This document shows, piece after piece, positions 6,515 through 47,063 of a stretch of DNA of 64,000 bases. The stretch comes from an uncultured Candidatus Saccharibacteria bacterium (GTDB taxonomy: Bacteria; Patescibacteriota; Minisyncoccia; Phycocordibacterales; UBA9973), in the NCBI GenBank assembly GCA_964426555.1, contig CAYRQJ010000001.1, positions 117,633 through 181,632 on the forward strand, in the 5' to 3' direction. The notes below the pieces were generated by a model, which did not search any database, was not told the origin of the DNA, and saw only the letters and a list, made by a program, of their open reading frames with translations. The translations under genes were made by a program, and so were the position numbers. Positions within the stretch are counted from its first letter, which is position 1, and every line of letters begins with the position of its first letter.

Positions 6515-7684
6515 TTACGGCTTCCAGTACATATACTGTCCATAATCGTCGGTTGATTTCCATTCCCAGAAACTGTTTGTACTGTTACATGAATCTACAT
6601 ATGAAATATTTCCTGTTGTGTCTGGGTCTACATTATTTAAAGTAGGGTAATGACCGTTTTGACAACCACCAGTTCCACAACCGCCACCAAATGTCCAATG
6701 GTAGCCATGTGTTTTTGGATTTTTACTATTTTTTGTTTTATCTATAACTAAACTAAATTTACATTGCCCTGTGTCACCCATATCGGTATCTGAAAAACTA
6801 CATGAACCAAAAGTAGTATATGTTGTCATGTTTACTCTTCTACACAAACGCTCTACAGTATAAGTATTTGTACTAAAAGGATTTGTTGCACATCTTCCTG
6901 TGTTTGTAGGGTTAGTAGATGGGTTAAATTTTGTACAAGTAGCCATTACTTGATTGTTGGTATTGTTAGTACCAGACAATGTTCCAGAAAAATTTGGAGC
7001 ACTATAGTATGAGATATAACTTCCTGCAGGACAGCCCCCGCCGCTACCAATAGTTACTCCAATGTCTGGAGCATACAAGTTACAACTATCCCCAAGACCA
7101 ATGTTGGTTGTGGGGTTATGTTTTGAGGTTTCAAAATTTGTAGCCAAAAAGTCTAATGAATAGACGGGGTTTGCAGCAGTATTACCAGATAAATTAATAT
7201 CATTTGTTATTGCAATTCCGCCCAACATTCTCCCAGCTATAATTCCTTGAAGTGCTTTAGCATTTTTAGCACTAGTATTAATTGGATAAACAAATTTAGG
7301 TATATTTAAATATTGATCAAATGATTTTGTTGTATTTTGATCATCTACCTGTGTTAATAAATCACTGGTTAAAAACCTTGTAGCTCCATTTACTACTAAC
7401 TTTTCACCAAATCCACCTTTGATACCATTTGCTCCATCGGACCCAGCATAAGACCCATTAGTTAAAACAGATTTTATATAATCTTTTGTTGTTTTGTTAG
7501 GGTCGGCACCTTCCCATGTACCAAATTTGTGTGCAATATTTACAGTATCAACACCCACTAACACTGGGGCACCAGTATTGCCAGCTGGGGCAGTAGTGGT
7601 TGGGTCTACATAGTCAGCCATTGCCATAGTTCCAAAAGTAAACATTAAAACAATTAGTGTAAGAAAAATTTTGTGCTTCATCAT
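6515..7684 (-). CDS. Secreted Cys-rich hypothetical protein
   Basis: Signal peptide MMKHKIFLTLIVLMFTFGTMAMA. The predicted mature N-terminus is DYVDPTTTAP. The C-terminal half has many Cys (GGGCGTGGCQ). Confidence 0.55.
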   Translation of the reverse strand: MMKHKIFLTLIVLMFTFGTMAMADYVDPTTTAPAGNTGAPVLVGVDTVNIAHKFGTWEGADPNKTTKDYIKSVLTNGSYAGSDGANGIKGGFGEKLVVNGATRFLTSDLLTQVDDQNTTKSFDQYLNIPKFVYPINTSAKNAKALQGIIAGRMLGGIAITNDINLSGNTAANPVYSLDFLATNFETSKHNPTTNIGLGDSCNLYAPDIGVTIGSGGGCPAGSYISYYSAPNFSGTLSGTNNTNNQVMATCTKFNPSTNPTNTGRCATNPFSTNTYTVERLCRRVNMTTYTTFGSCSFSDTDMGDTGQCKFSLVIDKTKNSKNPKTHGYHWTFGGGCGTGGCQNGHYPTLNNVDPDTTGNISYVDSCNSTNSFWEWKSTDDYGQYMYWKP

Positions 7685-10589: not shown

Positions 10590-11477
10590 TTACCATTTTT
10601 GACAATAAGTAGCAGAAGCTGTATTTACATCTACAGTTGTTGTGGTTTTTAGATTAAATTTATTTATTGTTGTTCCTCGTAATTCAAAAATCTTATAGCT
10701 TGTATTTTTAGTTAAGTCTACTGTTATATTTTTTGTTGTTCCAGAACCAAGATCTGTCCAAGTATTTACGTTTAAATTTTCTTTTAATTCCCACAAAGTA
10801 CTATCGGTTGCACTACTGGTGTATGTTAATGTTGCTAAACATTCAGCAGTATCTTTTGTGGTAGTTGTCAGGGTTAAAGCTATAGTTGGGTACGAGAATG
10901 AAGAACATTTTCCAAGATCACCCGAATTTTTTACTGGATTAATAAATCTACATACTGATTCACCAGTGCTAGGATTATGTTTTACTAATACAGTCCCAGA
11001 AGAACAAGGTACATTGCCAGAAGTAGTACAAGTATTACCACTAATTAAATTTGTAGTAGTTCCGTTTGGAAAATATAGTTTTTCAGCACCTGTGGTATAG
11101 CTTTGAGCTTTTGCAGGGTCAGCATCTACGGATACTTGAGCCACACGCAATGCTCCGGCAAAAATATTTCTTTTATCTACAGTAACATCACTAACAAAGT
11201 TGGCATTTTGTCTTACTGTTAAACGGTCTAATAATAAATTAGACTTTATCGCCAAAGATCCAACAGGGCACTGCGAAGTGTCTACTTTATTTGTACCATC
11301 ACCAAAACAAAGTGACCCGTAATGATACTGTGTAACTGGGCTCAAGTTAATAGGAGGGTACGACGACGTATCTGCAGGCAGTGTTGTTGGTTCAGTGAAT
11401 GCAGATATAGTAAATGCAGAACCAATTAACAAACCAAAAAGTGCAGCAATATAAAAATTCTTCTTATTTATGTTCAT
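10590..11477 (-). CDS. Secreted hypothetical protein, mature N-terminus FTEP...
   Basis: Signal peptide ending ISA|FTEPTTLP. The body is Thr-rich with several Cys. Confidence 0.5.
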   Translation of the reverse strand: MNINKKNFYIAALFGLLIGSAFTISAFTEPTTLPADTSSYPPINLSPVTQYHYGSLCFGDGTNKVDTSQCPVGSLAIKSNLLLDRLTVRQNANFVSDVTVDKRNIFAGALRVAQVSVDADPAKAQSYTTGAEKLYFPNGTTTNLISGNTCTTSGNVPCSSGTVLVKHNPSTGESVCRFINPVKNSGDLGKCSSFSYPTIALTLTTTTKDTAECLATLTYTSSATDSTLWELKENLNVNTWTDLGSGTTKNITVDLTKNTSYKIFELRGTTINKFNLKTTTTVDVNTASATYCQKW

Positions 11478-23546: not shown

Positions 23547-24863
23547 ATGTACAAATGGATAAGAATTATTTTAATAATCTTACCCATAACATACGGAATT
23601 TATTTTTGTTATATTAAAAAAGAAATTGAAATAATATTACCCCAAAACAGTGTAACTGTGATGGGGTATGTTAGTAATTACAAAGAAGAGAGAATTAGCA
23701 ACAACCATTATACTGTAAACGTAACAAAGCTAAATAACGAGCCGGTAACTGATAATTCAAAAATAATTATTACAACTAGTCCAGCAACTAATTTAAACTA
23801 TGGTGAAAATATAATAATAACTGGTGTAATAGAAAAACCCAAAAATTTTATTACAAATACTGGCATGGAGTTTGATTACCAAAATTATTTACGAATGAAA
23901 AATGTTGTTGGAATTATGCGTGAACCCGAAATAATAAATCATGGCGGGTTTAGTGGAAATTATTTATTAAAATTTTTATACAAAATTAGAAATAAATTTG
24001 CAATAAATTTAGAAAAATATTTAAATAAAAACGACAGCACATTATCTCGTGGAGTAATACTGGGGGAGAAGACTGGTATTACAAATAGCCTACGCGACAA
24101 TTTAGCAAATACATCTACCGCGCATATTATTGCACTGTCAGGCTACAACATTACTATTGTTAGTGAATTGGTTACTAAAATAACAGCGGGGTTAGGGCTG
24201 GTAATTAGCGGGGCATTGTCAGTATTTAGTATAATTATATTTATATTATTAGCTGGCGGGGGTAGTAGTGCATTGCGTGCGGGGATAATGGGAATAATTT
24301 TAGTTTACGCACGGTCTCGTGGTAAAAATTATAATGCAATATTTGCATTATTATTAGCGTCATCTATTTTAATATTGTTACAACCATTAATACTGCGCTA
24401 CGACATGGGTTTTCATCTTTCAGTATTGGCAACATTTGGTTTAATAGTCTTTCAGCGACCAATTGCAGTATTTTTAGTAAAGAAAAGATTTGGAAAATTT
24501 TTGGCAGAAATATTAGCCAGTACAATTTCTGCCAGTATTATGACTATGCCTTATATTGCATACAATATGGGCATAATTTCCATATTGGGAATTCCTGCAA
24601 ATATTATTGTGGTGCCACTACTGCCAATACTGATGTTTACTTCTTTTTTTACAGGATTATTTGGTGGAATATCTTACATACTAACTATACCTTTTGCATA
24701 TAGTACGCATATAGTTAGTAGTGTAATTTTAAAAACCATAAATACATTGGGCGATCTGCCATACAGTGCAGTGTATAAACAAAATATACCACTACTATTT
24801 ATAGTAGTGGTATATTTATTCTTGTTTTACTATGCTTTTAAATTACTTAAAAAATCATCGTAG
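23547..24863 (+). CDS. comEC: ComEC/Rec2 N-terminal and competence (membrane channel) portion
   Basis: N-terminal TM, an OB-like region, then a polytopic membrane domain (8+ TM) typical of the ComEC competence domain. There is no MBL domain in this ORF. Confidence 0.65.
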   Translation: MYKWIRIILIILPITYGIYFCYIKKEIEIILPQNSVTVMGYVSNYKEERISNNHYTVNVTKLNNEPVTDNSKIIITTSPATNLNYGENIIITGVIEKPKNFITNTGMEFDYQNYLRMKNVVGIMREPEIINHGGFSGNYLLKFLYKIRNKFAINLEKYLNKNDSTLSRGVILGEKTGITNSLRDNLANTSTAHIIALSGYNITIVSELVTKITAGLGLVISGALSVFSIIIFILLAGGGSSALRAGIMGIILVYARSRGKNYNAIFALLLASSILILLQPLILRYDMGFHLSVLATFGLIVFQRPIAVFLVKKRFGKFLAEILASTISASIMTMPYIAYNMGIISILGIPANIIVVPLLPILMFTSFFTGLFGGISYILTIPFAYSTHIVSSVILKTINTLGDLPYSAVYKQNIPLLFIVVVYLFLFYYAFKLLKKSS

Positions 24864-25429
24864 CGTCCACTGATTAATTCAAAATTAGTATTTTTAATAT
24901 AATCTTCTATATATTGTTTTTTGCCACTGGGCAGATAGTCGGCAACATAAGAATGTTCCCACATATCGATAGCATATACAGGAAAAGTATTCATAAGCTG
25001 GCCAATGTGTTGTTCGTCTACCCAAGATAATACAAGGTGGTCAAACGTTGTATCGTACGACAATACTGCCCAGCCTATACCCCTGGTCATTGCGGTTTCT
25101 TTTAGCCTAGCCATAAAATTATCCATACTACCAAAGTCAGCTACAATTTGATTTTCTAAATTTGAAGATGTGGGAATGTTTGAAGGAGCTCCAGTTAAAC
25201 TATAAAAATAAAGTTCGTGATTACGCATACCACAAAATTCAAAAGAAAATCTGCGTTGTAATTCAGTGCGAATATATGTTTCTTCCACTGGTAAGGAGTT
25301 TAGTTTTTCTTGAATTAAATTTGCGTGTTTTACATAACCAGCATACAGCTTTAAATGCTCTTCAATGTTTTTGGCAGAGATGCCAACAAGTTCTGGAATT
25401 TCAAAAGTTTTTGTATTATATGTTTCCAT
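24830..25429 (-). CDS. sodA: Fe/Mn superoxide dismutase
   Basis: C-terminal DMWEHSYV signature and the N-terminal helical domain. Confidence 0.9.
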   Translation of the reverse strand: METYNTKTFEIPELVGISAKNIEEHLKLYAGYVKHANLIQEKLNSLPVEETYIRTELQRRFSFEFCGMRNHELYFYSLTGAPSNIPTSSNLENQIVADFGSMDNFMARLKETAMTRGIGWAVLSYDTTFDHLVLSWVDEQHIGQLMNTFPVYAIDMWEHSYVADYLPSGKKQYIEDYIKNTNFELISGRYDDFLSNLKA

Positions 25430-25549: not shown

Positions 25550-26410
25550 ATGAAACAGCGGAAACTGGTATATTGGATAATATTTATATTAATTGTTTTA
25601 ACTCTTGTATTTTTAGCCTTGTTTTATAAGACTGAAAAACCATTAAAGCTAGTAATGCTAGACGTTGGCCAAGGTGACGCAATATATATAGAAACCCCAA
25701 ATGGCACAAACATGCTAATAGATTCCGGCCGAGACAAGACGGTACTGTATGAACTGGGTGAAGTAATGAGTTTTAACCAAAACAAGATAGACATTATTGA
25801 AGTTAGTAATCCTGATTTGGACCATATAGGCGGATTTCCTTTTGTAATGGAGAAATATAAGATAAAAAATATAATTTCTCCTGGAACAAACCATGACAGC
25901 TTGGAAGCTTTTGGTGAAATAGAGAAATTAGCACAAGAAAAACAAATTCCAGTACTGAAACCAAAGCAGGGTACTGTAATAATGCTAGACCAAAAAGAAA
26001 ATATTACTTATACAATCTTATGGCCAACGGGAAATGTAAATGGTTGGGAAGTAAACGCTGGGTCACTGGTAGGGTTAATTACATATGGAGATAAAAAGAT
26101 ACTACTAACAGGCGACGCTCCAAAAGAAGTAGAAGACCAAATAATCAATAAATACAAAGACGAATTACAAAATATTGATATTTTAAAGGTTGGGCACCAT
26201 GGGTCAAAGACTTCTACTGGTAGCGCGCTCGCCATGCTCGCGCGCCCAAAATACGCACTAATTAGCGCCGGTAAAAACAACAGGTATGGCCACCCGCACA
26301 AAATAGTGTTGGATAATTTAAATAATGTGGGTTCAAAAATTTTAGTAACCAAAGATACAGGGAGAATAACTTGCACCATATGGCTTAAAAAAGAAACCGT
26401 GTGTGACTAA
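25550..26410 (+). CDS. comEC: ComEC C-terminal metallo-beta-lactamase-fold domain protein with an N-terminal TM anchor
   Basis: LVMLDVGQGDAIYIETPNGTNMLIDSG and the HHGSKTS MBL motifs. Confidence 0.75.
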   Translation: MKQRKLVYWIIFILIVLTLVFLALFYKTEKPLKLVMLDVGQGDAIYIETPNGTNMLIDSGRDKTVLYELGEVMSFNQNKIDIIEVSNPDLDHIGGFPFVMEKYKIKNIISPGTNHDSLEAFGEIEKLAQEKQIPVLKPKQGTVIMLDQKENITYTILWPTGNVNGWEVNAGSLVGLITYGDKKILLTGDAPKEVEDQIINKYKDELQNIDILKVGHHGSKTSTGSALAMLARPKYALISAGKNNRYGHPHKIVLDNLNNVGSKILVTKDTGRITCTIWLKKETVCD

Positions 26411-31281: not shown

Positions 31282-31710
31282 ATGCAATTCCAAATGCCAA
31301 GATTTTTGGACATTGAAGACAAAGTCATTGGGCCTTTGACTTTTAAACAATTCATATTTTTGGGTGGAGGTTTTGGTTTGGCATATGTGTCATACAAATA
31401 CTTGGGTTGGACATGGGGTTTTCCTTTGATTGGACTATTTTTATTCCTGGGAATAAGTTTGTCTTTTTGGAAACCAAACAGTCGTCCAGCAATTGTAATG
31501 TTTCAAGCTTTTTTAAAGCATTACACAAAAAACCATATGTATGTTTGGAAACGCCCTACAAAAGCTGAAAGAATTAAAAAAGAAGAAAAGAAAGACGAGG
31601 GTACAAATATACAAAACAAAGACATAAATAAAAATAAAATTGAAGCATTAGCATGGAGTCTAGATGTAATGGATAGAGTTGGATCGGGAATTAAAAAGGA
31701 AGAAAATTAA
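31282..31710 (+). CDS. Small two-TM protein, VirB3/PrgI-like (by position and topology)
   Basis: Two adjacent TM helices, and the gene sits directly upstream of VirB4. Confidence 0.4.
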   Translation: MQFQMPRFLDIEDKVIGPLTFKQFIFLGGGFGLAYVSYKYLGWTWGFPLIGLFLFLGISLSFWKPNSRPAIVMFQAFLKHYTKNHMYVWKRPTKAERIKKEEKKDEGTNIQNKDINKNKIEALAWSLDVMDRVGSGIKKEEN

Positions 31711-32480: not shown

Positions 32481-34298
32481 ATGGGTATATTTTCAGGATT
32501 ATTTGGTGGTAATAAAAGGGAAGATTTAAACGATCTTGGATCTCTTTCTGTTCGCCCGGAAGATATTTACACTTCTGCTCAACTTGAACTACAAGACATT
32601 ATTGCTCCATCTGCATTACAAATAATGCCAACAGCGCTGAATTTGGGGGATATGATAGTGCGTTCATTTTATGTTGTGGGTTACCCCAGTATTCTTACAG
32701 ACAATTGGTTAACTCCTATTATTAATCTGGACCGAGTTTTTGATATTGCTATAAACATAAACCCAATTGATACTGGTAAAATTTTAATCCAATTCCAAAG
32801 AAAAGTTGCCGAAGTCCAAAGCCAAATCTCTGAGCGAGAAAGTAAAGGAATGGTTCGTGACCCAATGCTAGAAGCAGCGTATAGAGATTTAGAACAATTA
32901 CGTGATGGGCTACAACAAGCCCAAGAGCGAATGTTTGAAGTTGGGTTATACATTAGTATATATGCGCAAAACGAAACCGAATTATTCAAAGCTGAAAATG
33001 AAATAAAGGGTCAATTAGATTCTCAAATGGTTTTTCTAAAACCGGCAACATTCCAGCAAGACACAGCATTCCTGTCTAGTGTGCCAACTGGCGTAGACGA
33101 TTTAAAGGTTGTTCAAAAAATGAATACTGAACCATTAAGTAGTACTTTTCCTTTTGTATCTTTTGATTTAACAGGCAACAAAGGAATATTGTATGGTATT
33201 AACCAACATAATAATTCATTAATTATTTTTGACCGTTTTTCTTTAGAAAACTATAACTCGGTAACTTTTGCAAAATCTGGGTCTGGTAAATCTTTTGCTA
33301 CAAAGTTGGAAATTTTAAGATCTTTAATGTTTGATACCGAAGTAATCGTAATTGACCCAGAAAAAGAATACGAATATTTGTCTGATGCAGTAGGCGGAAG
33401 ATATTTTGATATTTCTCTTTCTTCTGACCACCATATTAATCCTTTTGATTTACCGGTACCAACAAAAGACGAAACAGCAGGGGACGTATTGCGTCAAAAC
33501 ACAATTAATCTTGTGGGGCTATTTCGTGTAATGCTGGGCGGGCTAACTCCTGAAGAAGATGCAATAATCGACCGCGCAATTACTGAAACTTATGCATTAA
33601 AAGACATTACCGTAGATTCAGATTTTACAAATTTAGAACCACCACTATTGTCTGACTTTGCTGTAGTACTGGCTGGTATGGACGGGACACAGTCTATCCA
33701 AACAAAGTTGGAAAAATATACAACCGGATCTTGGTCTGGGTTTTTAAACAAACCAAGTAATGTAGACATCAACCGTAAATTCGTAGTTTTTTCTATTCGA
33801 GATATGGAAGACGAACTAAAGCCAGTGGCAATGTATATTGTTACTCACTTTATTTGGAACGAAGTAAGAAAGAATTTAAGAAAGCGTTTAATGGTGGTAG
33901 ACGAAGCGTGGTGGATGATGAAAAATGAAGACACTGCTAGCTTCTTATATAGTATTGCAAAGCGTGGGCGTAAATATTATCTTGGTTTAGCTACAATTAC
34001 TCAAGACGTAGAAGATTTCTTAAAATCTCCTTATGGTAGACCAATATTGTCTAACTCTTCAATGCAACTATTGTTAAAACAATCGCCAACATCTATAGAT
34101 ATGTTAAAAGAGTCTTTTAATTTAACAGACTCTGAAAAATACACACTACTTGAAGCAAATGTAGGGGAAGGTATTTTCTTTGCTGGATTAAAACATGTAG
34201 CAATTAAAATTATTGCTTCTTATACTGAAGAACAAATTATCACATCTGACCCAGCCCAAGTATTGGCTATCCAAGCAGCAAAAGCTCAAGGTAAATAA
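32481..34298 (+). CDS. virB4: VirB4-like ATPase, C-terminal segment (Walker A/B)
   Basis: Walker A FAKSGSGKSFAT and Walker B MVVDEAWWMM (DEAW), typical of VirB4/TraC. Confidence 0.8.
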   Translation: MGIFSGLFGGNKREDLNDLGSLSVRPEDIYTSAQLELQDIIAPSALQIMPTALNLGDMIVRSFYVVGYPSILTDNWLTPIINLDRVFDIAININPIDTGKILIQFQRKVAEVQSQISERESKGMVRDPMLEAAYRDLEQLRDGLQQAQERMFEVGLYISIYAQNETELFKAENEIKGQLDSQMVFLKPATFQQDTAFLSSVPTGVDDLKVVQKMNTEPLSSTFPFVSFDLTGNKGILYGINQHNNSLIIFDRFSLENYNSVTFAKSGSGKSFATKLEILRSLMFDTEVIVIDPEKEYEYLSDAVGGRYFDISLSSDHHINPFDLPVPTKDETAGDVLRQNTINLVGLFRVMLGGLTPEEDAIIDRAITETYALKDITVDSDFTNLEPPLLSDFAVVLAGMDGTQSIQTKLEKYTTGSWSGFLNKPSNVDINRKFVVFSIRDMEDELKPVAMYIVTHFIWNEVRKNLRKRLMVVDEAWWMMKNEDTASFLYSIAKRGRKYYLGLATITQDVEDFLKSPYGRPILSNSSMQLLLKQSPTSIDMLKESFNLTDSEKYTLLEANVGEGIFFAGLKHVAIKIIASYTEEQIITSDPAQVLAIQAAKAQGK

Positions 34299-34322
34299 AT
34301 AAAGCTGTGATATAATAATTAG

Positions 34323-35267
34323 ATGAAAAGGCTTTTTGTAATGCTTTTTATGTTATCTAGTTTTTTAATTACTAACTCAAATGTATTTGGGCAAACTTCT
34401 AGCGCCGAACCAAATATAGACATTATAGCCAGCCCTAATGACCCAGAACCGGGGGAAGAAATCACAATTAGTCTTAGTAGTTACGAAATAGATTTGGGAT
34501 TAGCTTATATAAAATGGGCTGGAGAAAACAACACAAAAGAAGGTTATGGGGAAACAGAATTTACAGTAAACGCACCTAACAACGACAATGATTCATATAC
34601 TGCCCGAGCTTTTATAAAAACCAGTGATGGACAAAATATAGAAAAATCTATTACTGTATATACAAATACATATGATTTAATTTGGGAAGCCGTTGATACA
34701 AAATATCCTCCATTTTATGCTGGTAAAAAGTTACCAATTAAAGAAAATACGCTAAGAGTATCACTACTACGACCAACAACAAGTAAACAATATTCTTTTA
34801 AGTGGCAAAGAAATGGTAAAAGCATTACTGGTAAAGGTGGGATGCTTAACCCATGTGTAGAATTTGATAATACGGAAATTCAAAACAAAGAAAATGTTTC
34901 TGTAAAAATATCTAATGGTACAAACCAAGCTGAAAGAAATATTGATATACCATTAAACAAACAAAGAGTTTTGTTTTACGAATACATTCCACAATTTGGA
35001 TTAAACACAAATAATGCTTTGAATAAAAATTCAATTGGGTACGACGGCACAGTATCAGTACTGGGGTTGCCTTTAGGGTTAAGCAATAATGCAAAGACTG
35101 AATTTAGTTGGAATTTATCTGGAGATGATGTAAATAGTCAAGAAAATCCTTTTTTACTTTCTTTTGGTAAACCTGAAGGCAAGGGAGTTGTTAAAATAAC
35201 TGTAAGAATAGAAAATTTAAAATCTCTTTATCAAGAATTTAAAGGTGTTTTAAATTTAGAATTTTAA
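34323..35267 (+). CDS. Secreted hypothetical protein of the T4SS-like locus
   Basis: Signal peptide MKRLFVMLFMLSSFLITNSNVFG. Confidence 0.5.
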   Translation: MKRLFVMLFMLSSFLITNSNVFGQTSSAEPNIDIIASPNDPEPGEEITISLSSYEIDLGLAYIKWAGENNTKEGYGETEFTVNAPNNDNDSYTARAFIKTSDGQNIEKSITVYTNTYDLIWEAVDTKYPPFYAGKKLPIKENTLRVSLLRPTTSKQYSFKWQRNGKSITGKGGMLNPCVEFDNTEIQNKENVSVKISNGTNQAERNIDIPLNKQRVLFYEYIPQFGLNTNNALNKNSIGYDGTVSVLGLPLGLSNNAKTEFSWNLSGDDVNSQENPFLLSFGKPEGKGVVKITVRIENLKSLYQEFKGVLNLEF

Positions 35268-35367
35268 TATGAATCCGCCAAAACTTTTCATTTTAAATAA
35301 ACAAAAGTTTAGGAGGATGAATCCGCCAAAAATTTTTATTTGGTATTAATAATAAATTAAACTTTTC

Positions 35368-36450
35368 ATGAAAAAACTAAGAAAAATTAGGCGGATGAAT
35401 TTAAAAAAATTATTTACAATCATTTTTATACTAACTAGTATTGTTTTTTTGGGGAACATTACACATGCTGAAGAATTACCAACCGCCAAAACATACACCG
35501 AGCAAACCGGAATAGACGCATCTGCTGGTAGCTATGAACTAATCAGCCCAATAGGGAACTTAAGTAAAATACCAGATGTTAGTGATAATGGATTCTCTGA
35601 CTTTGTTAATCTACTTATTCGTATAGCTATAGCATTAGCAGGGGCTATAGCTGTAGTAATGCTAATAATAGGCGGTATACAGTATATGGGTACCGATAGT
35701 GTATGGGAGAAGGGGGAAAGTAGAAGTAGAATGACCAGTGCTATTATTGGTTTAGTGTTGTTATTAACATCTTATTTTATATTGTTTAATATTAATCCAG
35801 ATTTGGTAAATATTCGTATAGGGGGTCTGCGGGTTAGTGAAGAAGAGTGGGAAAAAGTAGAATTTGATAAAGGAGTAAGACCCTGGATAGGTTCTACTCC
35901 GGTAGATATAAGCAAAGCTTCAGAAAAAAATATTATTCAAAGCAATATTACTACTTATGATGTATCTTTAAAAAAAGCAGCAGTAGCAACAGGGTTATCT
36001 TGTACAGATTTAAAGGCTTTTGCTTTTGTGGAAACAGGTTTCGACAAAGATGTTGTTAATGGAACAAAAACTAGTAGTAGTGGAGCTGCTGGTCTTATGG
36101 CTTTAATGCCAGCTACGGGGAAAAATTATGGATGTAATACTGCTGCTGAACTAAGTGACCCTGAAAAAAGTGCTCTTTGCGGCGCAAAGTTTTTAAAAGA
36201 ATTAAAAACAAAAGCATGTAATGGTGCTGAAAAAAACGATGTTTGTAATACCACAGACACAAAATATATAAGTGCGGCTTATAACGGTGGCCCTGGGGTT
36301 AATGCTCAATCTAAAGACTGTCCAAATGAAAAAGTTACTCGCTGGCAGTGTCACACAAACCAGGGTGGATTAAAAGAAACAGAGTACTATACTGTTAAAA
36401 TAGCTGCAAATCAAGAACAACTAAAGAAAAAAGGGTGGGGTTGTGACTAA
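35368..36450 (+). CDS. VirB2/TrbC-like two-TM pilin module fused to an SLT-domain lytic transglycosylase (VirB1-like)
   Basis: Signal peptide, then FVNLLIRIAIALAGAIAVVMLIIGGIQYMG...RMTSAIIGLVLLLTSYFIL (two helices, VirB2-like pattern). C-terminal SLT motifs ETGF, AAGLMALMPATG and AYNGG. Confidence 0.7.
   Translation: MKKLRKIRRMNLKKLFTIIFILTSIVFLGNITHAEELPTAKTYTEQTGIDASAGSYELISPIGNLSKIPDVSDNGFSDFVNLLIRIAIALAGAIAVVMLIIGGIQYMGTDSVWEKGESRSRMTSAIIGLVLLLTSYFILFNINPDLVNIRIGGLRVSEEEWEKVEFDKGVRPWIGSTPVDISKASEKNIIQSNITTYDVSLKKAAVATGLSCTDLKAFAFVETGFDKDVVNGTKTSSSGAAGLMALMPATGKNYGCNTAAELSDPEKSALCGAKFLKELKTKACNGAEKNDVCNTTDTKYISAAYNGGPGVNAQSKDCPNEKVTRWQCHTNQGGLKETEYYTVKIAANQEQLKKKGWGCD
35500..35827. repeat. 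327-bp repeat, identical by eye (copy A), encoding the pilin-like module
   Basis: Same sequence as 38571-38898, as far as I can check by eye. Confidence 0.85.
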
Positions 36451-36520
36451 TATTTCTTTGTTTGATTAGTTTTATAAAAAATAAATAGTTTTTATAAAAG
36501 ATAAATGTTAAAATGTTTAT

Positions 36521-37771
36521 ATGCACAAGGGGCAAATGCTTCGAATATCTTTGTTTATCCTTATCTTAGGGATGGGAGCTTTTTTGATAATTAGAAACAT
36601 TACGCTAAAAAAACAACTAAAAAATGGAGAAATTGCGGAAATAAAACCCCGGGATTTTTTGCCGTTTGGAGACAAAGCAAAAGATTTTTTTAATAATGCA
36701 ATAGACAAAGTAACCGGTAACGAAGAAAACGACAATCAGCAAAATCAAGAAAATAAGCTTAGATTAAACAAGGTTTCTGCCGATGTTGCTGGTAGCGCAG
36801 TAGTAATAATAGACGACGAAATTGCAGGGCCAGTTGGAACAGATAAAAATGGTAATAACATATACGACAAAATTACTGCTGTGCAATATGTATTAAAGGA
36901 AAACGGATTTGTTTATAGCTATATCCCAAAATACAAAAAAAGTTATTTAATTTCAGAAACAAAAATTCCACACATTCAAAATGCTAAAATTTCAGATGAT
37001 GGAAATATTGTTTTATTTCAATATTTAGATTCAGATTTAAGTACTGAAAAATCTGTATTGGGTAAACTGGGGGACAGTGCTGTAAAAATTCTTCCGGACA
37101 ATATAATATCTTACGATATGAATCAAAGTGGTGATTTTGTTTATGTAAAAAAATCAAAAACAGGGTCAATTATTTCTTTAATTAATAATTTTGGGAATGA
37201 AGTAAATTTATATGTATCAACAGTCACAGAATGGAATGTAAAATTTATTAATAATAATGAATTATTACTAACTACAAAAGCATCAGAATATTTTAATGGG
37301 GTTTCTTATGTTTATAATATAAGATCAAAATCAATGACTCGTTTATGGGGAGGATTTTCTGGACTAACTACAAATATTTCCAGTGGTGGTAATTATATAT
37401 TACGAGCAGTTACAGAGCAGTCTGGACCAAAGCTTGCACTGTATGACAATAAAACTAAATCAGTTTTTGATTTAAACAAGCTGGGCATGGTTGAAAAGTG
37501 TGCTTTTAGTAAAGACGAAACAATTTTAGTATGTGCACTACCAAAAGAATTTCAGAATATGGCATATCCAGATAGTTGGTATTTAGGAGAAATCTCAACT
37601 AAAGATAATTTTATAAAATATACTACATTAAACAAAAACGAAACTATTCTTCCTGGTTTTAATGATATTACAGAAGATTTTGATGTAATAAATCTAAACA
37701 TTAGTAACACTGGAGACATTATGTCTTTTATCAACAAAAAAGATTCGTCTCTTTGGGTATATGAAGAATAA
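36521..37771 (+). CDS. Membrane-anchored hypothetical protein (N-terminal TM, large extracytoplasmic domain)
   Basis: N-terminal TM LRISLFILILGMGAFLII, no motif found. Confidence 0.45.
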   Translation: MHKGQMLRISLFILILGMGAFLIIRNITLKKQLKNGEIAEIKPRDFLPFGDKAKDFFNNAIDKVTGNEENDNQQNQENKLRLNKVSADVAGSAVVIIDDEIAGPVGTDKNGNNIYDKITAVQYVLKENGFVYSYIPKYKKSYLISETKIPHIQNAKISDDGNIVLFQYLDSDLSTEKSVLGKLGDSAVKILPDNIISYDMNQSGDFVYVKKSKTGSIISLINNFGNEVNLYVSTVTEWNVKFINNNELLLTTKASEYFNGVSYVYNIRSKSMTRLWGGFSGLTTNISSGGNYILRAVTEQSGPKLALYDNKTKSVFDLNKLGMVEKCAFSKDETILVCALPKEFQNMAYPDSWYLGEISTKDNFIKYTTLNKNETILPGFNDITEDFDVINLNISNTGDIMSFINKKDSSLWVYEE

Positions 37772-39377
37772 ATTTTTAAAAATTTTATTTGTTTTTGGAA
37801 TTTTATTTTATAGTATTAATTCTTTTGCTGCATGGAGTAATATTGGTAATAGTGTTTCCTTTATGGAAACCAGTAGTAATGGAAATGATACTGCTATTGT
37901 TTATTCTGGGTGTGGAGTTAGTGATGGTGGTGCACAAAACTGGGCAAATGCATTATATGAATCAAAATTAAAAACAAAAGGCATAAAATATCTCTATGCT
38001 GTGGCCTTACCTAGTGGAGCAAATAATTGTGCTGTATCTGTTGCAAATATCTCTAATTCAAAAATAGTTACTGATTTAGAATCAAAAAATACATCTGGGC
38101 AAATTAAAAATATTATAGTAATAATGCATTCATCTGGAGCATTCACAGCACAAGATTTTTTAAGACAAATCAATAATAAGTCAGCATTTAATAAAATAGT
38201 TACTGCTTTTAATATAGATGGGGCAAATATTAGTGGGGTAGCCTTAAAGAAAACATATTTAGTAATTGGTAAATCTGGAACAATCAAATCTTTAAATCAT
38301 GATATCGGTATTATAAACGACGAAACTATTGATTTAATTTTACCAACTGGATGTAGTACAGCTTTTTGTACACACATGAGACTGGTAAATAGTACTGGGG
38401 GGAATAGCACAGTAGATGCAGATTATAAAAATACGACAGCTAGTAATGTAACTAGTTCATATTTAGATAAACTACCTAATGTATCAGTTAGCTCTAGTGG
38501 CGGTACAACCCTTGTGGTTGGTGGTGGAGTAGCAAATACATCAACAACTCTAACGGCTAAAACTTTTAATGAGCAAACCGGAATAGACGCATCTGCTGGT
38601 AGCTATGAACTAATCAGCCCAATAGGGAACTTAAGTAAAATACCAGATGTTAGTGATAATGGATTCTCTGACTTTGTTAATCTACTTATTCGTATAGCTA
38701 TAGCATTAGCAGGGGCTATAGCTGTAGTAATGCTAATAATAGGCGGTATACAGTATATGGGTACCGATAGTGTATGGGAGAAGGGGGAAAGTAGAAGTAG
38801 AATGACCAGTGCTATTATTGGTTTAGTGTTGTTATTAACATCTTATTTTATATTGTTTAATATTAATCCAGATTTGGTAAATATTCGTATAGGGGGCTTA
38901 ACTGTAAATGAAGAAGCTTGGGATATCGAATTTGGTGATGGAGGATCACAGTATTTAACTAATGGCAGCTTAACTCCTGGATCTACAACAAAAAATTGTC
39001 CAGAAGGTTTTGTGAATACTGGTGTTTTTGTGGCTTGTAAAAGTATTGCTAAAAATATTGAAAACATGGTCGCAGCTGCAAAAAAAGATGGCATAATTTT
39101 AGGTGGGGGAGGATTTAGAACAAAAGAACAACAAATTGAATTAAGAAAGAAAAATTGCGGAGGCGATGTCGATACAAAAAAATCTACACAATGTAATCCA
39201 CCAACTGCTAAACCCGGAACTTCAAGACACGAAAGCGGAAAAGCTTTTGATATCACATGCGATGGTAAAAGTATGGCAGGTAGTAAATGTTTTACCTGGT
39301 TACAAAACAATGCAGCAAAGTATGGATTAAAAAACTACAAAGCCGAACCATGGCACTGGTCAACAGATGGACATTAA
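37761..39377 (+). CDS. Secreted multi-domain protein: N-terminal domain, VirB2-like two-TM module, C-terminal M15 (VanY/L-Ala-D-Glu peptidase-like) zinc peptidase
   Basis: Signal peptide. The internal 108 aa are identical to the 35368 gene. The C-terminus has SRHESGKAFD (SxHxxGxAxD) and EPWHW (ExxH) zinc ligands of peptidase M15. Confidence 0.65.
   Translation: MKNKFLKILFVFGILFYSINSFAAWSNIGNSVSFMETSSNGNDTAIVYSGCGVSDGGAQNWANALYESKLKTKGIKYLYAVALPSGANNCAVSVANISNSKIVTDLESKNTSGQIKNIIVIMHSSGAFTAQDFLRQINNKSAFNKIVTAFNIDGANISGVALKKTYLVIGKSGTIKSLNHDIGIINDETIDLILPTGCSTAFCTHMRLVNSTGGNSTVDADYKNTTASNVTSSYLDKLPNVSVSSSGGTTLVVGGGVANTSTTLTAKTFNEQTGIDASAGSYELISPIGNLSKIPDVSDNGFSDFVNLLIRIAIALAGAIAVVMLIIGGIQYMGTDSVWEKGESRSRMTSAIIGLVLLLTSYFILFNINPDLVNIRIGGLTVNEEAWDIEFGDGGSQYLTNGSLTPGSTTKNCPEGFVNTGVFVACKSIAKNIENMVAAAKKDGIILGGGGFRTKEQQIELRKKNCGGDVDTKKSTQCNPPTAKPGTSRHESGKAFDITCDGKSMAGSKCFTWLQNNAAKYGLKNYKAEPWHWSTDGH
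38571..38898. repeat. 327-bp repeat, identical by eye (copy B)
   Basis: Same sequence as 35500-35827. Confidence 0.85.
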
Positions 39378-39383
39378 TAAATA

Positions 39384-39408
39384 AAACCCGCAATTGCGGG
39401 TTTTATTC
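39384..39408. terminator. Bidirectional rho-independent terminator
   Basis: aaaacccgcaattgcgggtttt. Confidence 0.6.
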
Positions 39409-39876
39409 TTCTTTATAAGTTACAACTATTCTTCTTTCTTTACCTAAGCCAGTAGATTCTGTAGTTATGTTTTTGTCTTTTTCTAAGAATGTATGTATTA
39501 TTCTGCGTTCATATCCATTCATTGGGTCCAGCTCGATGCTGGATTTAAAAAATTTTGCACGCTCTGCCATCATATGGGCTTTTATTTTTAAATCCTCGAT
39601 ATGTTTTTTTTGAAAATCGTTAACATCAAGACCAACAGGGGTAGGGGTGTCAGTTTCTTTTAGGCCTGTTTCCATAAATCTATGTAGCAGAGTTACAAGT
39701 GAATGCAATGTTTCTCCATCTTTACCAATAAGTATTCTTCCGTCTCCCGATTTTATACTAATAGTGTTTAAACCACTTTCTTCGTCATATATCGTTTCAA
39801 TAGTCTCAATTTTAGCACCAATATTGGAAACAAGCTCATTTATGAAGTTTTGTGCATCTAAAATAGTCTTAGCCAT
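39403..39876 (-). CDS. khpB: Jag/KhpB-like RNA-binding protein (KH + R3H)
   Basis: C-terminal R3H-like GYERRIIHTFLEKDKNITTESTGLGKERRIVV. It is located downstream of yidC as in the jag-yidC cluster. Confidence 0.7.
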   Translation of the reverse strand: MAKTILDAQNFINELVSNIGAKIETIETIYDEESGLNTISIKSGDGRILIGKDGETLHSLVTLLHRFMETGLKETDTPTPVGLDVNDFQKKHIEDLKIKAHMMAERAKFFKSSIELDPMNGYERRIIHTFLEKDKNITTESTGLGKERRIVVTYKEE

Positions 39877-39926
39877 ATTTAGACTTTACCATAGACAGAT
39901 ATCTTGAGCAAGCTTGTAAATTAAGC

Positions 39927-40673
39927 TTATTTTAGTACTTCAGCTTTAGTATATACTTTGCCTTTATTTTTTATATGTTTAGCGATAGATCTTTCTTGAA
40001 CTATTGTAATAAGATTATTTACAACCCAATACAGTGCAACTGCGGCTTGGAATTTGTAAGCAATAAATATAATTAAAACAGGAAACACAAACTTCATTTG
40101 AGTTTGCATAGATTTTTGTAAATCAGCAGAAAATCCTTTTGCTCCACTGTTTGCATTGGCCTGCATTTTTTGAGTAGGGGAAAGATAAATCTGTAAGAAT
40201 TGAGAAACACCAGCAAGAATAGCTAAAGCAACAGAATGTACTTTTGTTAAATCAAGAATACCTAAAAACATTGTATTTAGTGTTTGGGGAGCATTCACAA
40301 ATGAATAAAGTGGTGCATTTGTAAAATCCATACCTTTTAAGAATACATAATACAAACCAAAAATAATCGGCAGTTGCACTATCATTACCAAACATCCTGA
40401 AAAAGGATTAACTTTTTTTTCTTTATATAAAGCAAATGTTGCTTTAGCTTCTTCTTCTTTAGAAAGACCTTGTTTTTTTAGTTCAGCTAATTCACCTTGA
40501 ATACTAGCTAATTCAAGCTGAGAAACAATAGCTTTTCTAGAAAGCGGATATAAAATAACTTTAATTAGAATAGTTAAAATTACAATTGCAAAACCAAGGT
40601 CTCCAAAAGTAACGTAAGAAAGTATTAAAACTAAAATGTTTAAAAGGGGTGTATAAATAAATGTATTCCACAT
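39927..40673 (-). CDS. yidC: Membrane protein insertase YidC (short monoderm type)
   Basis: 248 aa, five TM, YidC/Oxa1 core, in the rnpA-yidD-yidC context. Confidence 0.85.
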   Translation of the reverse strand: MWNTFIYTPLLNILVLILSYVTFGDLGFAIVILTILIKVILYPLSRKAIVSQLELASIQGELAELKKQGLSKEEEAKATFALYKEKKVNPFSGCLVMIVQLPIIFGLYYVFLKGMDFTNAPLYSFVNAPQTLNTMFLGILDLTKVHSVALAILAGVSQFLQIYLSPTQKMQANANSGAKGFSADLQKSMQTQMKFVFPVLIIFIAYKFQAAVALYWVVNNLITIVQERSIAKHIKNKGKVYTKAEVLK

Positions 40674-44245: not shown

Positions 44246-44497
44246 ATGGATCATATAAATAGTTACTTTTCTAAAATTACAGGTACTATTTTAAAAAAAG
44301 GGCAAGAAAAAGAAGCTATTATTTTGTGCATAAAAGAAATAACTGGTATTGAATTAAAAAAACATGATTTTGTTTTAAAAAACCATGTTTTAAAAATAAA
44401 ACTTTTTGGGATTAAGAGATTTAAAATTATCTCCCTTAAGGAAAAAATTATCTCCCTTTTAAAAGAAAGAAATATTATAATTACTGAGCTTCAGTAG
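44246..44497 (+). CDS. Small hypothetical protein downstream of dnaN (possibly DUF721/DciA-like)
   Basis: 83 aa, basic. The start codon lies in the ATGGAT flank of the element. Assignment is by position only. Confidence 0.35.
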   Translation: MDHINSYFSKITGTILKKGQEKEAIILCIKEITGIELKKHDFVLKNHVLKIKLFGIKRFKIISLKEKIISLLKERNIIITELQ

Positions 44498-47063
44498 GGG
44501 GTAAATCTGTTTTCTTAAATTTAAAATTAATAGTATCTTCTCCTTGGTATAATAAATTATCGTATGCTATTGCTTTTATAATATAATCACCATCTTGAAG
44601 GTTTAAAAGATTTAAATCAATCTCGTAATCTAATTTTGCTGGTAACAATGTTGTTATTTTTCTGTTGTTTAAAAATAAATCAACTTTTTTCAAACTACTT
44701 GTTTCAGCTGTAATGATAATATTTATTTTTTCACCTGTTTTGAATTCATTGTTTCTCTCAAAACCACTAATTGTTACTGGAATATTTATAATATTTGTGT
44801 GAGCTGTATCGTAATAATTTGGTATATCAGCAGCGGTTACTGTTTTAGCTCCATTATTATTAAACCATCGTCTAACACCATATTCCCAATTATTAAATTG
44901 TGGGTCAGATTGTGGATTGTTAGGAATACCACCTGTTGGGTTGTCTTTGTCTAACCAATATAAAATTGTATGAACATTTGTTATGACTTTTTCTACTCTT
45001 GCGCTTTGCGGTGTAAAATCAGTTATTTTACCACCAGTGATACTGTCTATGTAAAAACTTTCTCCACCTTGCCACAAGCCTCGCAGGACCGCAGGACCAC
45101 CGGTTTCTGGCATTGGTATATCTAAAAATTCTTCATTTCCTGCTGTTTGCAGATATTTTGTTATAACTTTATTAAACAAAGGACCGGCAAGTTGTGCGCC
45201 ACCTTTTTTCATGGGTGTATTTTCATTGTTCCCAGCCCAAGCCCCAACAACAATTCTAGGAGAATATCCCACAATCCATGCATCGCGGTTAGAGTTTGTT
45301 GTTCCTGTTTTTGCGGCAACACTATAACCTGGCACATGTAGACTGGATCCACGCCCAAATGTTGGAGCTCTTAAGTCTTCATTAGAAAGAATTTTTGAAA
45401 TATTACTTGTTACATAGTCTGGCAGTATTTGTTCTCCTGTGTTTTCTTTATATTCTTCTAAAATCTCACCTTTTTTGTCTTCAATTTTCAGTATCCCTGT
45501 TGGAGATTTTTTTATACCGTTATTCGCAAAAACACCATAAGCTGAAACCATGTCTAATAGTTTTACTTCACCAGCTCCAAGAACCAAAGATAAACCATAA
45601 TCTTTGGGGTTACCCAGTGTTGTAATACCCATTGATCTTGCTGTGGCTATACTGTCACTAATTCCAGATAAATAAAGTAACTTTACTGAAGGAATATTTC
45701 TAGATTCTGCCAGTGCATTTTTTAATTGCATTGGGCCCTTGAATTTAGAATCAAAGTTTTCTGGAGAATAACATTCGCGCCCTTTTCCGTCTGAACTACA
45801 ATTTGTATTAAATTCTGTAAAAGTATCAAACAAAACTGTTTCTGGTCTATAACCTTTTTTAAAAGCAGTTGCATATACAAATGGTTTAAAAGAAGACCCA
45901 GGCTGTCTTGCGGCAGTTGCTACATTAAATTGCCCGTCTATTTCTTTATCAAAGAAATCTCTTGAACCAACCATTGATAAAATGTGTCCAGTTTTTGGAT
46001 CCAATGCAACCAGCGCAATATTTTTACCATTATAATCACGTTCGTTTCGTTCTGCTTCTTTTTTTGCTTCTTCTTCAGCATATACCTGTAAATCGTAATC
46101 CAGTGTTGATATTACATGTAAACCTTCTTTATTAACACGATCTTCTCCGTATTTTTTTATTAAATAATCTCTAATAAAAAACACAAAATGAGGAGCCTTT
46201 ACTGCAGTTTGAGCTTTGGGTACAAAGAAAACTTTTTCATTTAATGCTTCGTTTTGTTGTTCTTTTGTAATATAACCCAATGTTTCCATTCTGCTTAAAA
46301 CATAACGTTGTCTAACATCTAATTCGTCTCGATGTTTACCATTTGGGTCGTAATATACAGGACTTTGGGGGATTGCAGCTAAATAAGCTGCTTCAGCCAA
46401 GCTCACATCCAATGCATGTTTTTTAAAATAAACTTGTGACGCTTCTTCTACTCCGTACACATTTCCACTATATGGGGCTTCATTTAAATAAATTTCTAAA
46501 ATTTGATCCTTTGTTAGTTTTTGTTCTAAGCGTATTGCAATAATTATTTCTTTTATTTTTCTTGAAATTGTTTTTTCTCTTGTTAGTAAAGTATTTTTTA
46601 CAATTTGTTGAGTTAAAGTTGATCCTCCTTGGGTTTCACCTTTAAAGATTGTTGAAAAAGATGCACGGATGATTGATTTTACTCTAACACCGTGGTGTTT
46701 ATAGAATTCTGCATCTTCTGTTGCTATTATTGCATTAGGAATAAGTGGATTGATTTTATTTAAATCCACAACGGTTCTCCTTATTGAATTATGGTTATCG
46801 TAAAGTAAAATTTTTCCAGTACGGTCATAAATTTTTGTAGATTCTGTAATAATTCTTTTGTCAAAATTTGAAATATCAGGAAGAGGTACTGTTGCCAGAT
46901 AAAACAAAGACAAGGCAACTATTAGTGTTAAAAAACCTAAGGCAGTATAGCCCAAGTATTTTAAATAGTTTTTTGCAGTCTTTTTAACTTTTGGGTTTTC
47001 TATGTATTTTGTGACATTTTTAACCGCTTTGTGCTTTTTTACATCTTGTATGAATTTATGCAT
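44481..47063 (-). CDS. Class A penicillin-binding protein (transglycosylase + transpeptidase), PBP1A-like
   Basis: N-terminal TM. GT51 motifs EDAEFYKHHGV and GGSTLTQQ. Transpeptidase SSFKPF. C-terminal extra domain. Confidence 0.9.
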   Translation of the reverse strand: MHKFIQDVKKHKAVKNVTKYIENPKVKKTAKNYLKYLGYTALGFLTLIVALSLFYLATVPLPDISNFDKRIITESTKIYDRTGKILLYDNHNSIRRTVVDLNKINPLIPNAIIATEDAEFYKHHGVRVKSIIRASFSTIFKGETQGGSTLTQQIVKNTLLTREKTISRKIKEIIIAIRLEQKLTKDQILEIYLNEAPYSGNVYGVEEASQVYFKKHALDVSLAEAAYLAAIPQSPVYYDPNGKHRDELDVRQRYVLSRMETLGYITKEQQNEALNEKVFFVPKAQTAVKAPHFVFFIRDYLIKKYGEDRVNKEGLHVISTLDYDLQVYAEEEAKKEAERNERDYNGKNIALVALDPKTGHILSMVGSRDFFDKEIDGQFNVATAARQPGSSFKPFVYATAFKKGYRPETVLFDTFTEFNTNCSSDGKGRECYSPENFDSKFKGPMQLKNALAESRNIPSVKLLYLSGISDSIATARSMGITTLGNPKDYGLSLVLGAGEVKLLDMVSAYGVFANNGIKKSPTGILKIEDKKGEILEEYKENTGEQILPDYVTSNISKILSNEDLRAPTFGRGSSLHVPGYSVAAKTGTTNSNRDAWIVGYSPRIVVGAWAGNNENTPMKKGGAQLAGPLFNKVITKYLQTAGNEEFLDIPMPETGGPAVLRGLWQGGESFYIDSITGGKITDFTPQSARVEKVITNVHTILYWLDKDNPTGGIPNNPQSDPQFNNWEYGVRRWFNNNGAKTVTAADIPNYYDTAHTNIINIPVTISGFERNNEFKTGEKINIIITAETSSLKKVDLFLNNRKITTLLPAKLDYEIDLNLLNLQDGDYIIKAIAYDNLLYQGEDTINFKFKKTDLPPTEAQ

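Follow-up and report, generated by a model that had tools for sequence, protein, structure and literature searches.

Two peptidoglycan hydrolases encoded in an oriC-proximal Patescibacteria type IV secretion operon share a VirB2-like module that is identical in DNA

We analysed a 64,000-nt stretch of DNA (the window) from an uncultured Candidatus Saccharibacteria bacterium (contig CAYRQJ010000001.1). Two genes on its plus strand, gene 1 (35368-36450) and gene 2 (37761-39377), encode different peptidoglycan-cleaving enzymes fused to the same membrane module. Gene 1 carries an SLT lytic transglycosylase and gene 2 a VanY/M15B zinc peptidase. The shared module matches the Pfam family PF18895 of type IV secretion system (T4SS) pilins, and the two genes close a T4SS operon. 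On balance, we consider it probable that they encode two extracytoplasmic peptidoglycan hydrolases tethered through their shared VirB2-like module to the oriC-proximal T4SS of Patescibacteria, with the module docking interchangeable enzymes. The pattern of identity in this and related genomes indicates that recurrent gene conversion keeps the two copies of the module the same.

The initial annotation had proposed these two open reading frames (ORFs). Both exist, with products of 360 and 538 amino acids, and all of the peptide strings that it quoted are present in the translations. An in-register comparison of gene 1 with gene 2 gave a single unbroken exact match of 326 bp (35500-35825 = 38571-38896), which encodes 109 identical residues in both proteins. 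The identity noticed at first (327 bp, 35500-35827 = 38571-38898) is therefore real, but its end had been placed 2 nt too far because positions 35826-35827 are mismatched. By tblastn and hidden Markov model (HMM) scans, these are the only two copies of the module in the 64-kb window, and they form direct repeats separated by 3.07 kb. A chance origin of such a match in 64 kb is impossible. Diverged homology flanks the tract on both sides, with seven mismatches in the 19 nt upstream. Overall, the homologous region has approximately 70% amino acid identity over 184 residues, and the similarity between the paralogs stops at the linker after the module. Therefore, the 326-bp tract is a homogenised core inside an older, diverged paralogous segment.

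Three other origins of the identity were weighed: collapse of the repeat or bubble-popping during assembly, a very recent duplication, and purifying selection at the protein level alone. All three together seem extremely unlikely to us. Short-read assemblers can homogenise near-identical repeats. However, the repeat structure recurs in eight further independent assemblies, making nine with the window, and these come from different projects. Two short-read contigs from related loci, L082 (GCA_020049755.1, ending at 7196) and L083 (a JGI metagenome contig, ending at 11400), both terminate inside module copy 2. They break in the repeat instead of collapsing it, which argues for a real repeat that assemblers cannot cross. 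L082 represents a 98%-identical strain in which one base of the tract differs between the two copies, and the assembler must therefore have kept them apart. That base may be a fresh mutation that has not yet been converted. By the same token, "100%" in any single assembly is perhaps slightly overstated.

The other two origins are excluded by comparisons between genomes. Two module genes are present at the locus in seven species-level genomes: the window, L001 (GCA_964632605.1), L002 (GCA_964401705.1), L003, L005, L007 and, independently, L076. All seven contain exact within-genome tracts (326, 357, 352, 335, 233, 244, and 758 bp), and in every case the tract ends within a few codons of the boundary T-I-N-P-x-L...IGG. 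Over a 74-codon module core, nucleotide identity is 99-100% within genomes but 53-82% between them. Of the 74 codons, 0-2 show a purely synonymous difference within genomes, against 6-27 between genomes, which excludes protein-level selection alone. The two copies also co-vary in sequence: both window copies encode GIDASAG, whereas both copies of the close relative L083 encode GINASAG. The C-terminal domains are unrelated within any one genome but orthologous between genomes (44-86% amino acid identity for L001_1, L003_1, L005_1, L007_1, and L076_2; also L001_2 and L003_2). These orthologous enzyme domains, and the conserved order in which a gene that we call p416 lies between the two fusions, mean that the pair is older than the divergence of the clade. 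A very recent duplication is thereby excluded, and the modules must have been homogenised repeatedly since. We also considered a nucleotide-level functional element embedded in the tract, and rejected it because synonymous sites diverge freely between genomes. The gene conversion invoked in the initial annotation is therefore supported, and recurs in seven species-level genomes. Such clade-wide concerted evolution, limited to one domain, appears not to have been described.

The enzyme at the C terminus of gene 1 was called an SLT lytic transglycosylase in the initial annotation, and this assignment holds. Its PF01464 score was 52.3 bits (cut-off, 21.3). Family 1 lytic transglycosylases are recognised by a catalytic Glu in an E-S/T motif and by GLMQ-like and AYNxG motifs. 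Gene 1 encodes FVE222TG, GLMALMPATG (in which the Q is replaced by A), and AAYNGGPG, and so its catalytic motifs are intact as far as they can be read from the translation. An AlphaFold2 (AF2) model of the whole protein had a mean predicted local distance difference test (pLDDT) score of 71.7, with a lysozyme-like fold over residues 190-355 (pLDDT, ~90). Foldseek matched this model to Slt/Slt70, MltF, MltC, and MltE (E, ~1e-4), although this was a full-length search that was dominated by the SLT domain and is uninformative on the membrane hairpin. The ortholog P0002 starts at the equivalent of gene 1 codon 10, and the true start of gene 1 may likewise be the in-frame ATG at 35395.

The zinc peptidase of the M15 type that had been proposed for gene 2 was also borne out, with a PF02557 (VanY) score of 54.6 bits (cut-off, 25). 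The VanY/M15B signature consists of zinc ligands in H-x6-D plus a C-terminal His, with the catalytic Glu in ExxH. Gene 2 encodes SRH490ESGKAFD497 (H-x6-D) and E529PWH532 (ExxH), so here too the predicted catalytic motifs are intact. In a PDB search, the gene 2 C terminus matched VanXY-type D-Ala-D-Ala carboxypeptidases (E = 5e-8) and LdcB (E = 1.6e-4). Gene 2 also has a secreted N-domain ahead of the module. The N-domain shares the motifs YSGCGVSD, VIMHSSGA, FNxDG, and CxHM with its ortholog in L083 (10497-11240; 50% identity). These suggest compatibility with a Ser-Asp-His alpha/beta hydrolase, which makes the N-domain a candidate for a third lytic activity on the gene 2 protein. A homologue search with the 222-aa N-domain retrieved no match, though P0003, which is identical to gene 2, also went unretrieved. 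A two-sequence N-domain profile gave only a chance match in the PDB, and the AF2 model of gene 2 was poor (mean pLDDT, 49).

The pilin-like nature of the module, also part of the initial annotation, is supported by Pfam, since both proteins pass the PF18895 (T4SS_pilin) gathering score of 26.6 bits (29.2 for gene 1 and 29.8 for gene 2). Each protein has a signal peptide followed by two hydrophobic helices with a short polar loop between them. The hydrophobic segments are residues 10-34, 76-109, and 121-144 in gene 1 (by hydropathy) and 5-24, 302-335, and 347-370 in gene 2. Signal-peptide cleavage sites of the A-x-A type, read by eye, are predicted at THA/EE and SFA/AW. In the gene 1 AF2 model the hairpin helices span residues 75-108 and 112-142 (pLDDT, 76-84). 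A scan of one genome per species revealed 430 stretches that encode relatives of the module, and all locus counts given below refer to the best 79 of these 430. PF18895 matched 64 of the 79 relatives (E <= 1e-3). The classical TrbC/VirB2 family, PF04956, also matched 11 of them at the same threshold (best E = 6e-6) but gave no match at E <= 0.1 in the two window proteins. Across 80 modules, a Y, an L, and the T-I-N-P-x-L columns are nearly invariant, T-I-N-P-x-L being the most conserved stretch of all.

With the predicted signal peptide cleaved, helix 1 would run inward, the polar loop would be cytoplasmic, and helix 2 would run outward, so that the enzyme would be displayed outside the membrane. 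This predicted arrangement (N terminus out, helix 1 in, loop in the cytoplasm, helix 2 out) is the topology of a VirB2 pro-pilin. The outside of the membrane is also where a wall hydrolase must be.

The initial annotation considered a pilin-like module fused to murein hydrolases to be unusual, but it turned out to be common. Among Paceibacteria-type genomes, this architecture is the standard form of the operon's VirB2-like gene. Taxon labels on the best 79 loci are Paceibacterota, Nomurabacteria, Parcubacteria, Minisyncoccia, or generic "Saccharibacteria" metagenome-assembled genomes. In all of them the module ORF has 151-964 codons (some are cut at contig ends), and complete ORFs always have a further domain after the module. 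The survey of relatives that had been suggested at the outset revealed many enzyme families in this position. Nearly all of the partners that Pfam can identify at the C terminus act on peptidoglycan: VanY (15 loci), SLT (7), NlpC/P60 (7), YkuD (5), SLT_2 (3), and Amidase_5 (3), with the rarer Amidase_2 (2) and M15_4, M15, and SLT_3 (1 each). Other Pfam domains in the 79 relatives were TIG, Big_1, and Filamin immunoglobulin (Ig)-like domains, and Pur_ac_phosph_N once. An extra domain is N-terminal of the module in the two cases that were located, L076 and L045. Some relatives differ in their cargo. L028 (5017-7665) has two enzymatic domains behind one module, YkuD plus VanY/M15, and L041 (5449-6858, from RAAC4_OD1_1) carries the L,D-transpeptidase-fold domain YkuD, so the cargo is not always a classical hydrolase.

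An exhaustive phmmer search against 1.84 billion representatives yielded 13,466 matches at E <= 1e-3. Most of the best 150 are 300-700 aa long, and these 150 include a few stand-alone pilins of 131-140 aa, such as P0115 (140 aa) and P0126 (131 aa). Tandem VirB2-like modules also occur in single polypeptides: four followed by a C-terminal SLT domain in P0027, 10 in P0033, and 15 within the 1,775 aa of P0028. These multi-module proteins could be covalent pilin oligomers or polyprotein precursors. In a 2025 survey of the Patescibacteria T4SS, RAAC4_OD1_1 gene 537, two genes after VirB4, is listed as "VirB2" on the basis of PF18895 (PMC12102498, Table S3). By position this gene is the L041 ORF, a 469-aa pilin + YkuD fusion. 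Therefore, such fusions were counted as pilins without comment in that survey. We found no description of a pilin/hydrolase fusion in the literature, of which the searchable part is incomplete. The parts are known, but that this clade has a VirB2-like/hydrolase fusion as its norm appears not to have been described.

Enzyme domains differ even between close relatives. L083 DNA is 93% identical to the window across virB4, but the similarity of its gene 1 to that of the window ends approximately 470 nt into the gene, right after the module. From there on it encodes the lysozyme-like type of C terminus found in L001, L003, L005, and L007 and not the SLT type of the window. This is in line with the module shuffling raised in the initial annotation. 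Within the clade whose VirB4 is 88-91% identical to that of the window, gene 1 carries no fewer than three enzyme types and gene 2 no fewer than five. One partner in each pair is always SLT or lysozyme-like, and the other is VanY, NlpC/P60, or an unassigned domain. We infer that the enzyme domains downstream of T-I-N-P-x-L behave as exchangeable cassettes, and such exchange also appears to be undescribed.

How might these proteins work? A flexible linker of approximately 35 residues would tether each hydrolase to the same two-helix module. The module would be the part recognised by the secretion machine, either as a pilin in the membrane pool or within a short pilus or stalk that it helps to build. 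A glycan cutter (SLT) and a peptide cutter (M15B) would thus be concentrated where the machine crosses a wall, whether its own, that of a host, or both, and the VirB2 and VirB1 roles would be merged into one protein. Gene conversion between the direct repeats would hold the modules identical, since the two proteins would have to share one site or assemble together.

Several observations count against this reading. A nine-sequence module profile had only two matches in the PDB, and although both were VirB2, they were weak (E = 1.6 and 4.2). With an 80-sequence profile VirB2 was again weak (E = 4.3), and a cytochrome b561-type protein came out on top. An hhalign comparison of the module with the T-pilin sequence gave a probability of 7.6%, which is not significant. 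PF18895 proteins are not known from any experiment to form a pilus or to bind the machine. It is difficult to see how a tightly packed VirB2-type filament could carry 25-40 kDa of cargo on each subunit, and the locus showed no pilin free of cargo. Enzymes of the VanY family often act as carboxypeptidases, shortening stem peptides instead of opening the wall. Finally, conversion between close direct repeats can persist without selection, so identity alone is no proof of co-assembly. The name pilin must be read accordingly: the PF18895 match stands, but significant direct similarity to a solved VirB2 does not, and "pilin" is a family label.

The lack of significant similarity to solved VirB2 would also suit ordinary membrane-anchored autolysins, with the two-helix segment being a generic hairpin anchor unrelated to pilins or to the secretion system. 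The PF18895 scores exceed the cut-off by only 2.6-3.2 bits, and hydrophobic hairpins readily match one another, as the cytochrome b561-type protein illustrates. Even so, we judge a generic anchor to be very unlikely. The module gene is directly downstream of virB4 in 74 of 79 loci, and the family matches to PF18895 and TrbC/VirB2 among the relatives would not be expected of it. In addition, PF18895 gives a higher score (37.6 bits) to small stand-alone homologs that share the motifs, and Y-x-L-L-x-P and T-I-N-P-x-L are conserved far beyond the needs of a passive anchor.

The tethered form that we favor assumes that module and enzyme stay together. They might instead be parts of a pro-pilin precursor that is cleaved at its conserved boundaries, N-terminally near Y-x-L-(I/L)-x-P and C-terminally near T-I-N-P-x-L. 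Cleavage would release one and the same mature pilin from both genes, together with free secreted hydrolases at a set ratio, and the modules would be identical because the pilus needs a homogeneous subunit. A stand-alone small pilin-like ORF was not found anywhere within the 64-kb window. The locus thus has no VirB2-like genes other than the fusions, which fits a precursor. The identical tract also corresponds to the complete unit of stand-alone pilins in the same subfamily, as P0115 and P0126 end 10-15 residues after INPxL. The conservation peak at T-I-N-P-x-L falls at the proposed C-side cleavage site, and poly-module proteins such as P0027, with four modules and then SLT, are of the expected kind. 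RP4 TrbC and Ti VirB2 undergo C-terminal or cyclising maturation, which gives such processing a precedent. However, we found no protease gene or evidence of cleavage, and a TraF/LepB-like peptidase was not seen in the operon, where no dedicated search for one was made. Equally, the motifs may be conserved as structural caps for the hairpin, and the large N-terminal Ig-like domains in many relatives would require a second cleavage. For these reasons we view a cleaved precursor as distinctly improbable.

The turnover of enzyme types favors a host-directed role. In its strongest form, the modules would polymerise into an enzyme-armed pilus that carries host-specific wall hydrolases, as polymorphic effectors, to the surface of a host bacterium. 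The major pilin would then possibly be encoded elsewhere, and cassette exchange would track the chemistry of host peptidoglycan. C-terminal enzymes turn over among close relatives in which the module and VirB4 are conserved, and a sharp, conserved demarcation motif precedes the variable part, as this predicts. In F-type pilins, both termini are considered to face outward from the filament. Extracytoplasmic proteins of the locus also evolve fast. Within the clade, identity to the window is 44-47% for p314 (encoded between virB4 and gene 1) and 49-55% for p416, compared with 88-91% for VirB4 (and 81-85% for DnaA). In Southlakia epibionticum, the T4SS cluster with its pilin array was reported to be essential for epibiotic growth (PMC10633639). 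An armed pilus nevertheless seems unlikely to us. Bulky cargo in a filament is a steric problem, no pilus is known, and no immunity gene co-varies with enzyme type. We had considered an immunity-protein role for p416 and rejected it, because a p416 homolog is conserved in 73 of 79 loci irrespective of the enzyme. The bacterium's own wall must also be opened, and a class A penicillin-binding protein (PBP) is encoded in the window (44481-47063). An own wall and the lack of an immunity-like partner favor a VirB1-like role.

A bolder proposal joins parts of these alternatives: the "pilin" of the Paceibacteria-type T4SS would be made only within hydrolase fusions, and would carry host-specific hydrolases to the host either after cleavage at T-I-N-P-x-L or as an armed pilus. 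We put it forward tentatively and think it rather unlikely. If it were true, the part that polymerises would be held uniform by gene conversion, and only the enzymatic warheads would change. It would mean a new coupling of a secretion-system filament to polymorphic effectors, and a mechanism by which epibionts breach the wall of their host.

The genetic context of the fusions is that of a T4SS (Table 1). The order in the window is VirB6-like, p248, PrgI, TraC-like, VirB4, p314, gene 1, p416, and gene 2. Downstream lie the convergent genes jag-yidC-rnpA-rpmH and then dnaA-dnaN, with gene 2 directly meeting the convergent jag. The gene order is the same in L001, L002, L082, and L083. An oriC-proximal T4SS of Patescibacteria has been described (Microb Genom 2025; PMC12102498), and the window operon is that system. 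VirB4 is 68-91% identical in amino acids across the related loci, and homologs of YidC and DnaA are present in 71 and 64 of the 79, respectively. The position of the 1,331-aa protein is conserved in L001, L002, and L083, and it has no Pfam family; we infer from position and topology only that it is an extended VirB6-like channel subunit.

Table 1. Coordinates of the T4SS operon genes in the window and of the parts of the two fusion proteins
Feature	Position	Strand	Basis or remark
Polytopic membrane protein, 1331 aa	26435..30430	+	~8 separate hydrophobic stretches, aa 563-896 (overlapping segments merged)
PrgI/VirB3-like protein	31282..31710	+	PF12666 26.8 bits vs cut-off 27; same annotation on orthologs
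Separate TraC-like N-terminal part of VirB4, 229 aa	31679..32368	+	Weak PF11130 match
VirB4-type ATPase (TraG P-loop domain), 605 aa	32481..34298	+	PF19044 94.4 bits
p314, secreted or anchored, between virB4 and gene 1	34323..35267	+	Homolog in 76/79 loci
Gene 1, 360 aa: signal peptide, VirB2-like module, linker, SLT lytic transglycosylase	35368..36450	+	ORF, Pfam, AF2
Identical tract copy 1, in gene 1	35500..35825	+	326 bp, aa 45-153
Gene 1 module core: helix 1 (aa 79-108), polar loop TDSVWEKGESRSR (109-121), helix 2 (122-140)	35602..35826	+	
Gene 1 module core end: conserved boundary motif NINPDLVNIRIGG (aa 141-153)	within 35602..35826	+	
Flexible linker, module to SLT, ~aa 154-190	35827..35937	+	AF2 pLDDT <50 at residues 150-184
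SLT lytic transglycosylase domain, Pfam aa 202-316	35971..36315	+	Pfam, Foldseek, motifs
p416, N-terminal membrane anchor + extracytoplasmic domain	36521..37771	+	Overlaps gene 2 start by 11 nt
Gene 2, 538 aa: signal peptide, N-domain, VirB2-like module, linker, VanY/M15B peptidase	37761..39377	+	ORF, Pfam
Gene 2 N-domain, ~aa 24-245, secreted, ~220 aa	37830..38495	+	
Identical tract copy 2, in gene 2	38571..38896	+	326 bp, aa 271-379
VanY/M15B zinc peptidase domain, Pfam aa 427-534	39039..39362	+	Pfam, PDB search, motifs

Several neighbouring features are of interest in their own right. VirB4 is split into the 229-aa TraC-like protein and the 605-aa ATPase, and this split is conserved in L001, L002, L082, and L083, where the orthologs of the 229-aa protein carry a PF26593 (TraC-like) annotation. 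The N-terminal piece may be the "TrsD" component of the published survey. A Pfam scan of p314 and p416 assigned no family to either. They evolve much faster than VirB4 and may be parts of the machine at the surface or in contact with the host. Immediately upstream of the operon are genes for the competence channel ComEC (23547-24863), an Fe/Mn superoxide dismutase (24830-25429), and a metallo-beta-lactamase-fold protein (25550-26410), and the last two recur as neighbours in L001 and L002. Between p314 and gene 1 (35268-35400) are two tandem tiny ORFs that both begin with ATGAATCCGCCAAAA. They encode MNPPKLFILNK (at 35269) and MNPPKIFIWY (at 35317), each followed by a stop codon, and the second is right behind an AGGAGG. 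The repeat at their starts occurs in two exact copies compared with 0.16 expected by chance. Both tiny-ORF copies contain ATCCGCC, to which GGCGGAT at 35390 is complementary. These ORFs may provide leader-peptide or RNA-structure control of gene 1. An Rfam search of 34000-40000 found no RNA family above threshold.

Few machines have been shown to be indispensable to Patescibacteria living as epibionts, and the T4SS is one of them. Three findings bear on its role: in a large clade its only VirB2-like gene is fused to wall hydrolases, gene conversion holds the pilin part of two such fusions identical, and close relatives differ in the enzymatic part through exchange. Taken together, they link pilin, glycosidase, and peptidase functionally. 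They also correct the published inference that Patescibacteria with VirB2 mostly lack VirB1 function. The locus is a clean natural example of domain-limited concerted evolution, and testable predictions follow from it about processing, localisation, and specificity for own or host peptidoglycan.

Several known systems resemble parts of this one. The PF18895 pilins of S. epibionticum (SEML1_0014-0019) belong to the same Pfam family, have a signal peptide and two helices with a polar loop, and are encoded beside VirB4, VirB3 (PrgI), and a VirB6-like protein near oriC, as the window fusions are. However, they are small stand-alone proteins of approximately 125-140 aa in arrays, whereas the module here is inside enzymes of 360 and 538 aa, far from the ~100-150 aa precursor of a stand-alone pilin. 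The stand-alone VirB2 arrays in other Patescibacteria are highly diverged (mean, 25%; maximum, 54% amino acid identity [PMC12102498]). In contrast, there are only two copies here, and they are identical in DNA. The S. epibionticum ML1 cluster also encodes a lysozyme-like/cysteine peptidase protein (SEML1_0006) and an M15B-like protein (SEML1_0007) in genes separate from the pilins (PMC10633639, supplement). Therefore, pilin, lysozyme-like glycosidase, and M15B peptidase are together in one oriC-proximal T4SS cluster in both cases, as separate genes there and as pairwise fusions here. This is a Rosetta-stone argument that the three act together.

The concerted evolution of the module is like that of duplicate tuf genes and rRNA operons. 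In both, identity within a genome includes synonymous sites, genomes diverge from each other, and the tracts are bounded by loss of homology. Here, however, it affects one domain-sized segment in two otherwise unrelated multi-domain genes, and the pattern spans a clade and the independent lineage L076. The fusions also recall the polymorphic toxins CdiA-CT, Rhs, and LXG, in that a conserved N-terminal module ends at a sharp boundary, T-I-N-P-x-L, and is followed by variable C-terminal enzymes. Unlike those toxins, they have no evident cognate immunity gene, since p416 is conserved and gene 2 is followed by the convergent jag. Their variable domains are nearly all wall-remodelling enzymes, and their conserved part is a membrane hairpin and not a soluble secretion domain.

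Finally, the window genes resemble VirB1-like proteins in being peptidoglycan hydrolases encoded inside a T4SS operon. Counterparts in monoderm conjugation systems (CD419/TrsG profiles) are PrgK of pCF10 and TraG of pIP501, which are likewise encoded in T4SS operons, tethered to the membrane, and combine glycan and peptide cleavage (PMC12102498). In PrgK and TraG both activities are in one polypeptide behind a simple N-terminal anchor, whereas here each activity has a protein of its own, in which a signal peptide and a VirB2-like hairpin precede the enzyme.

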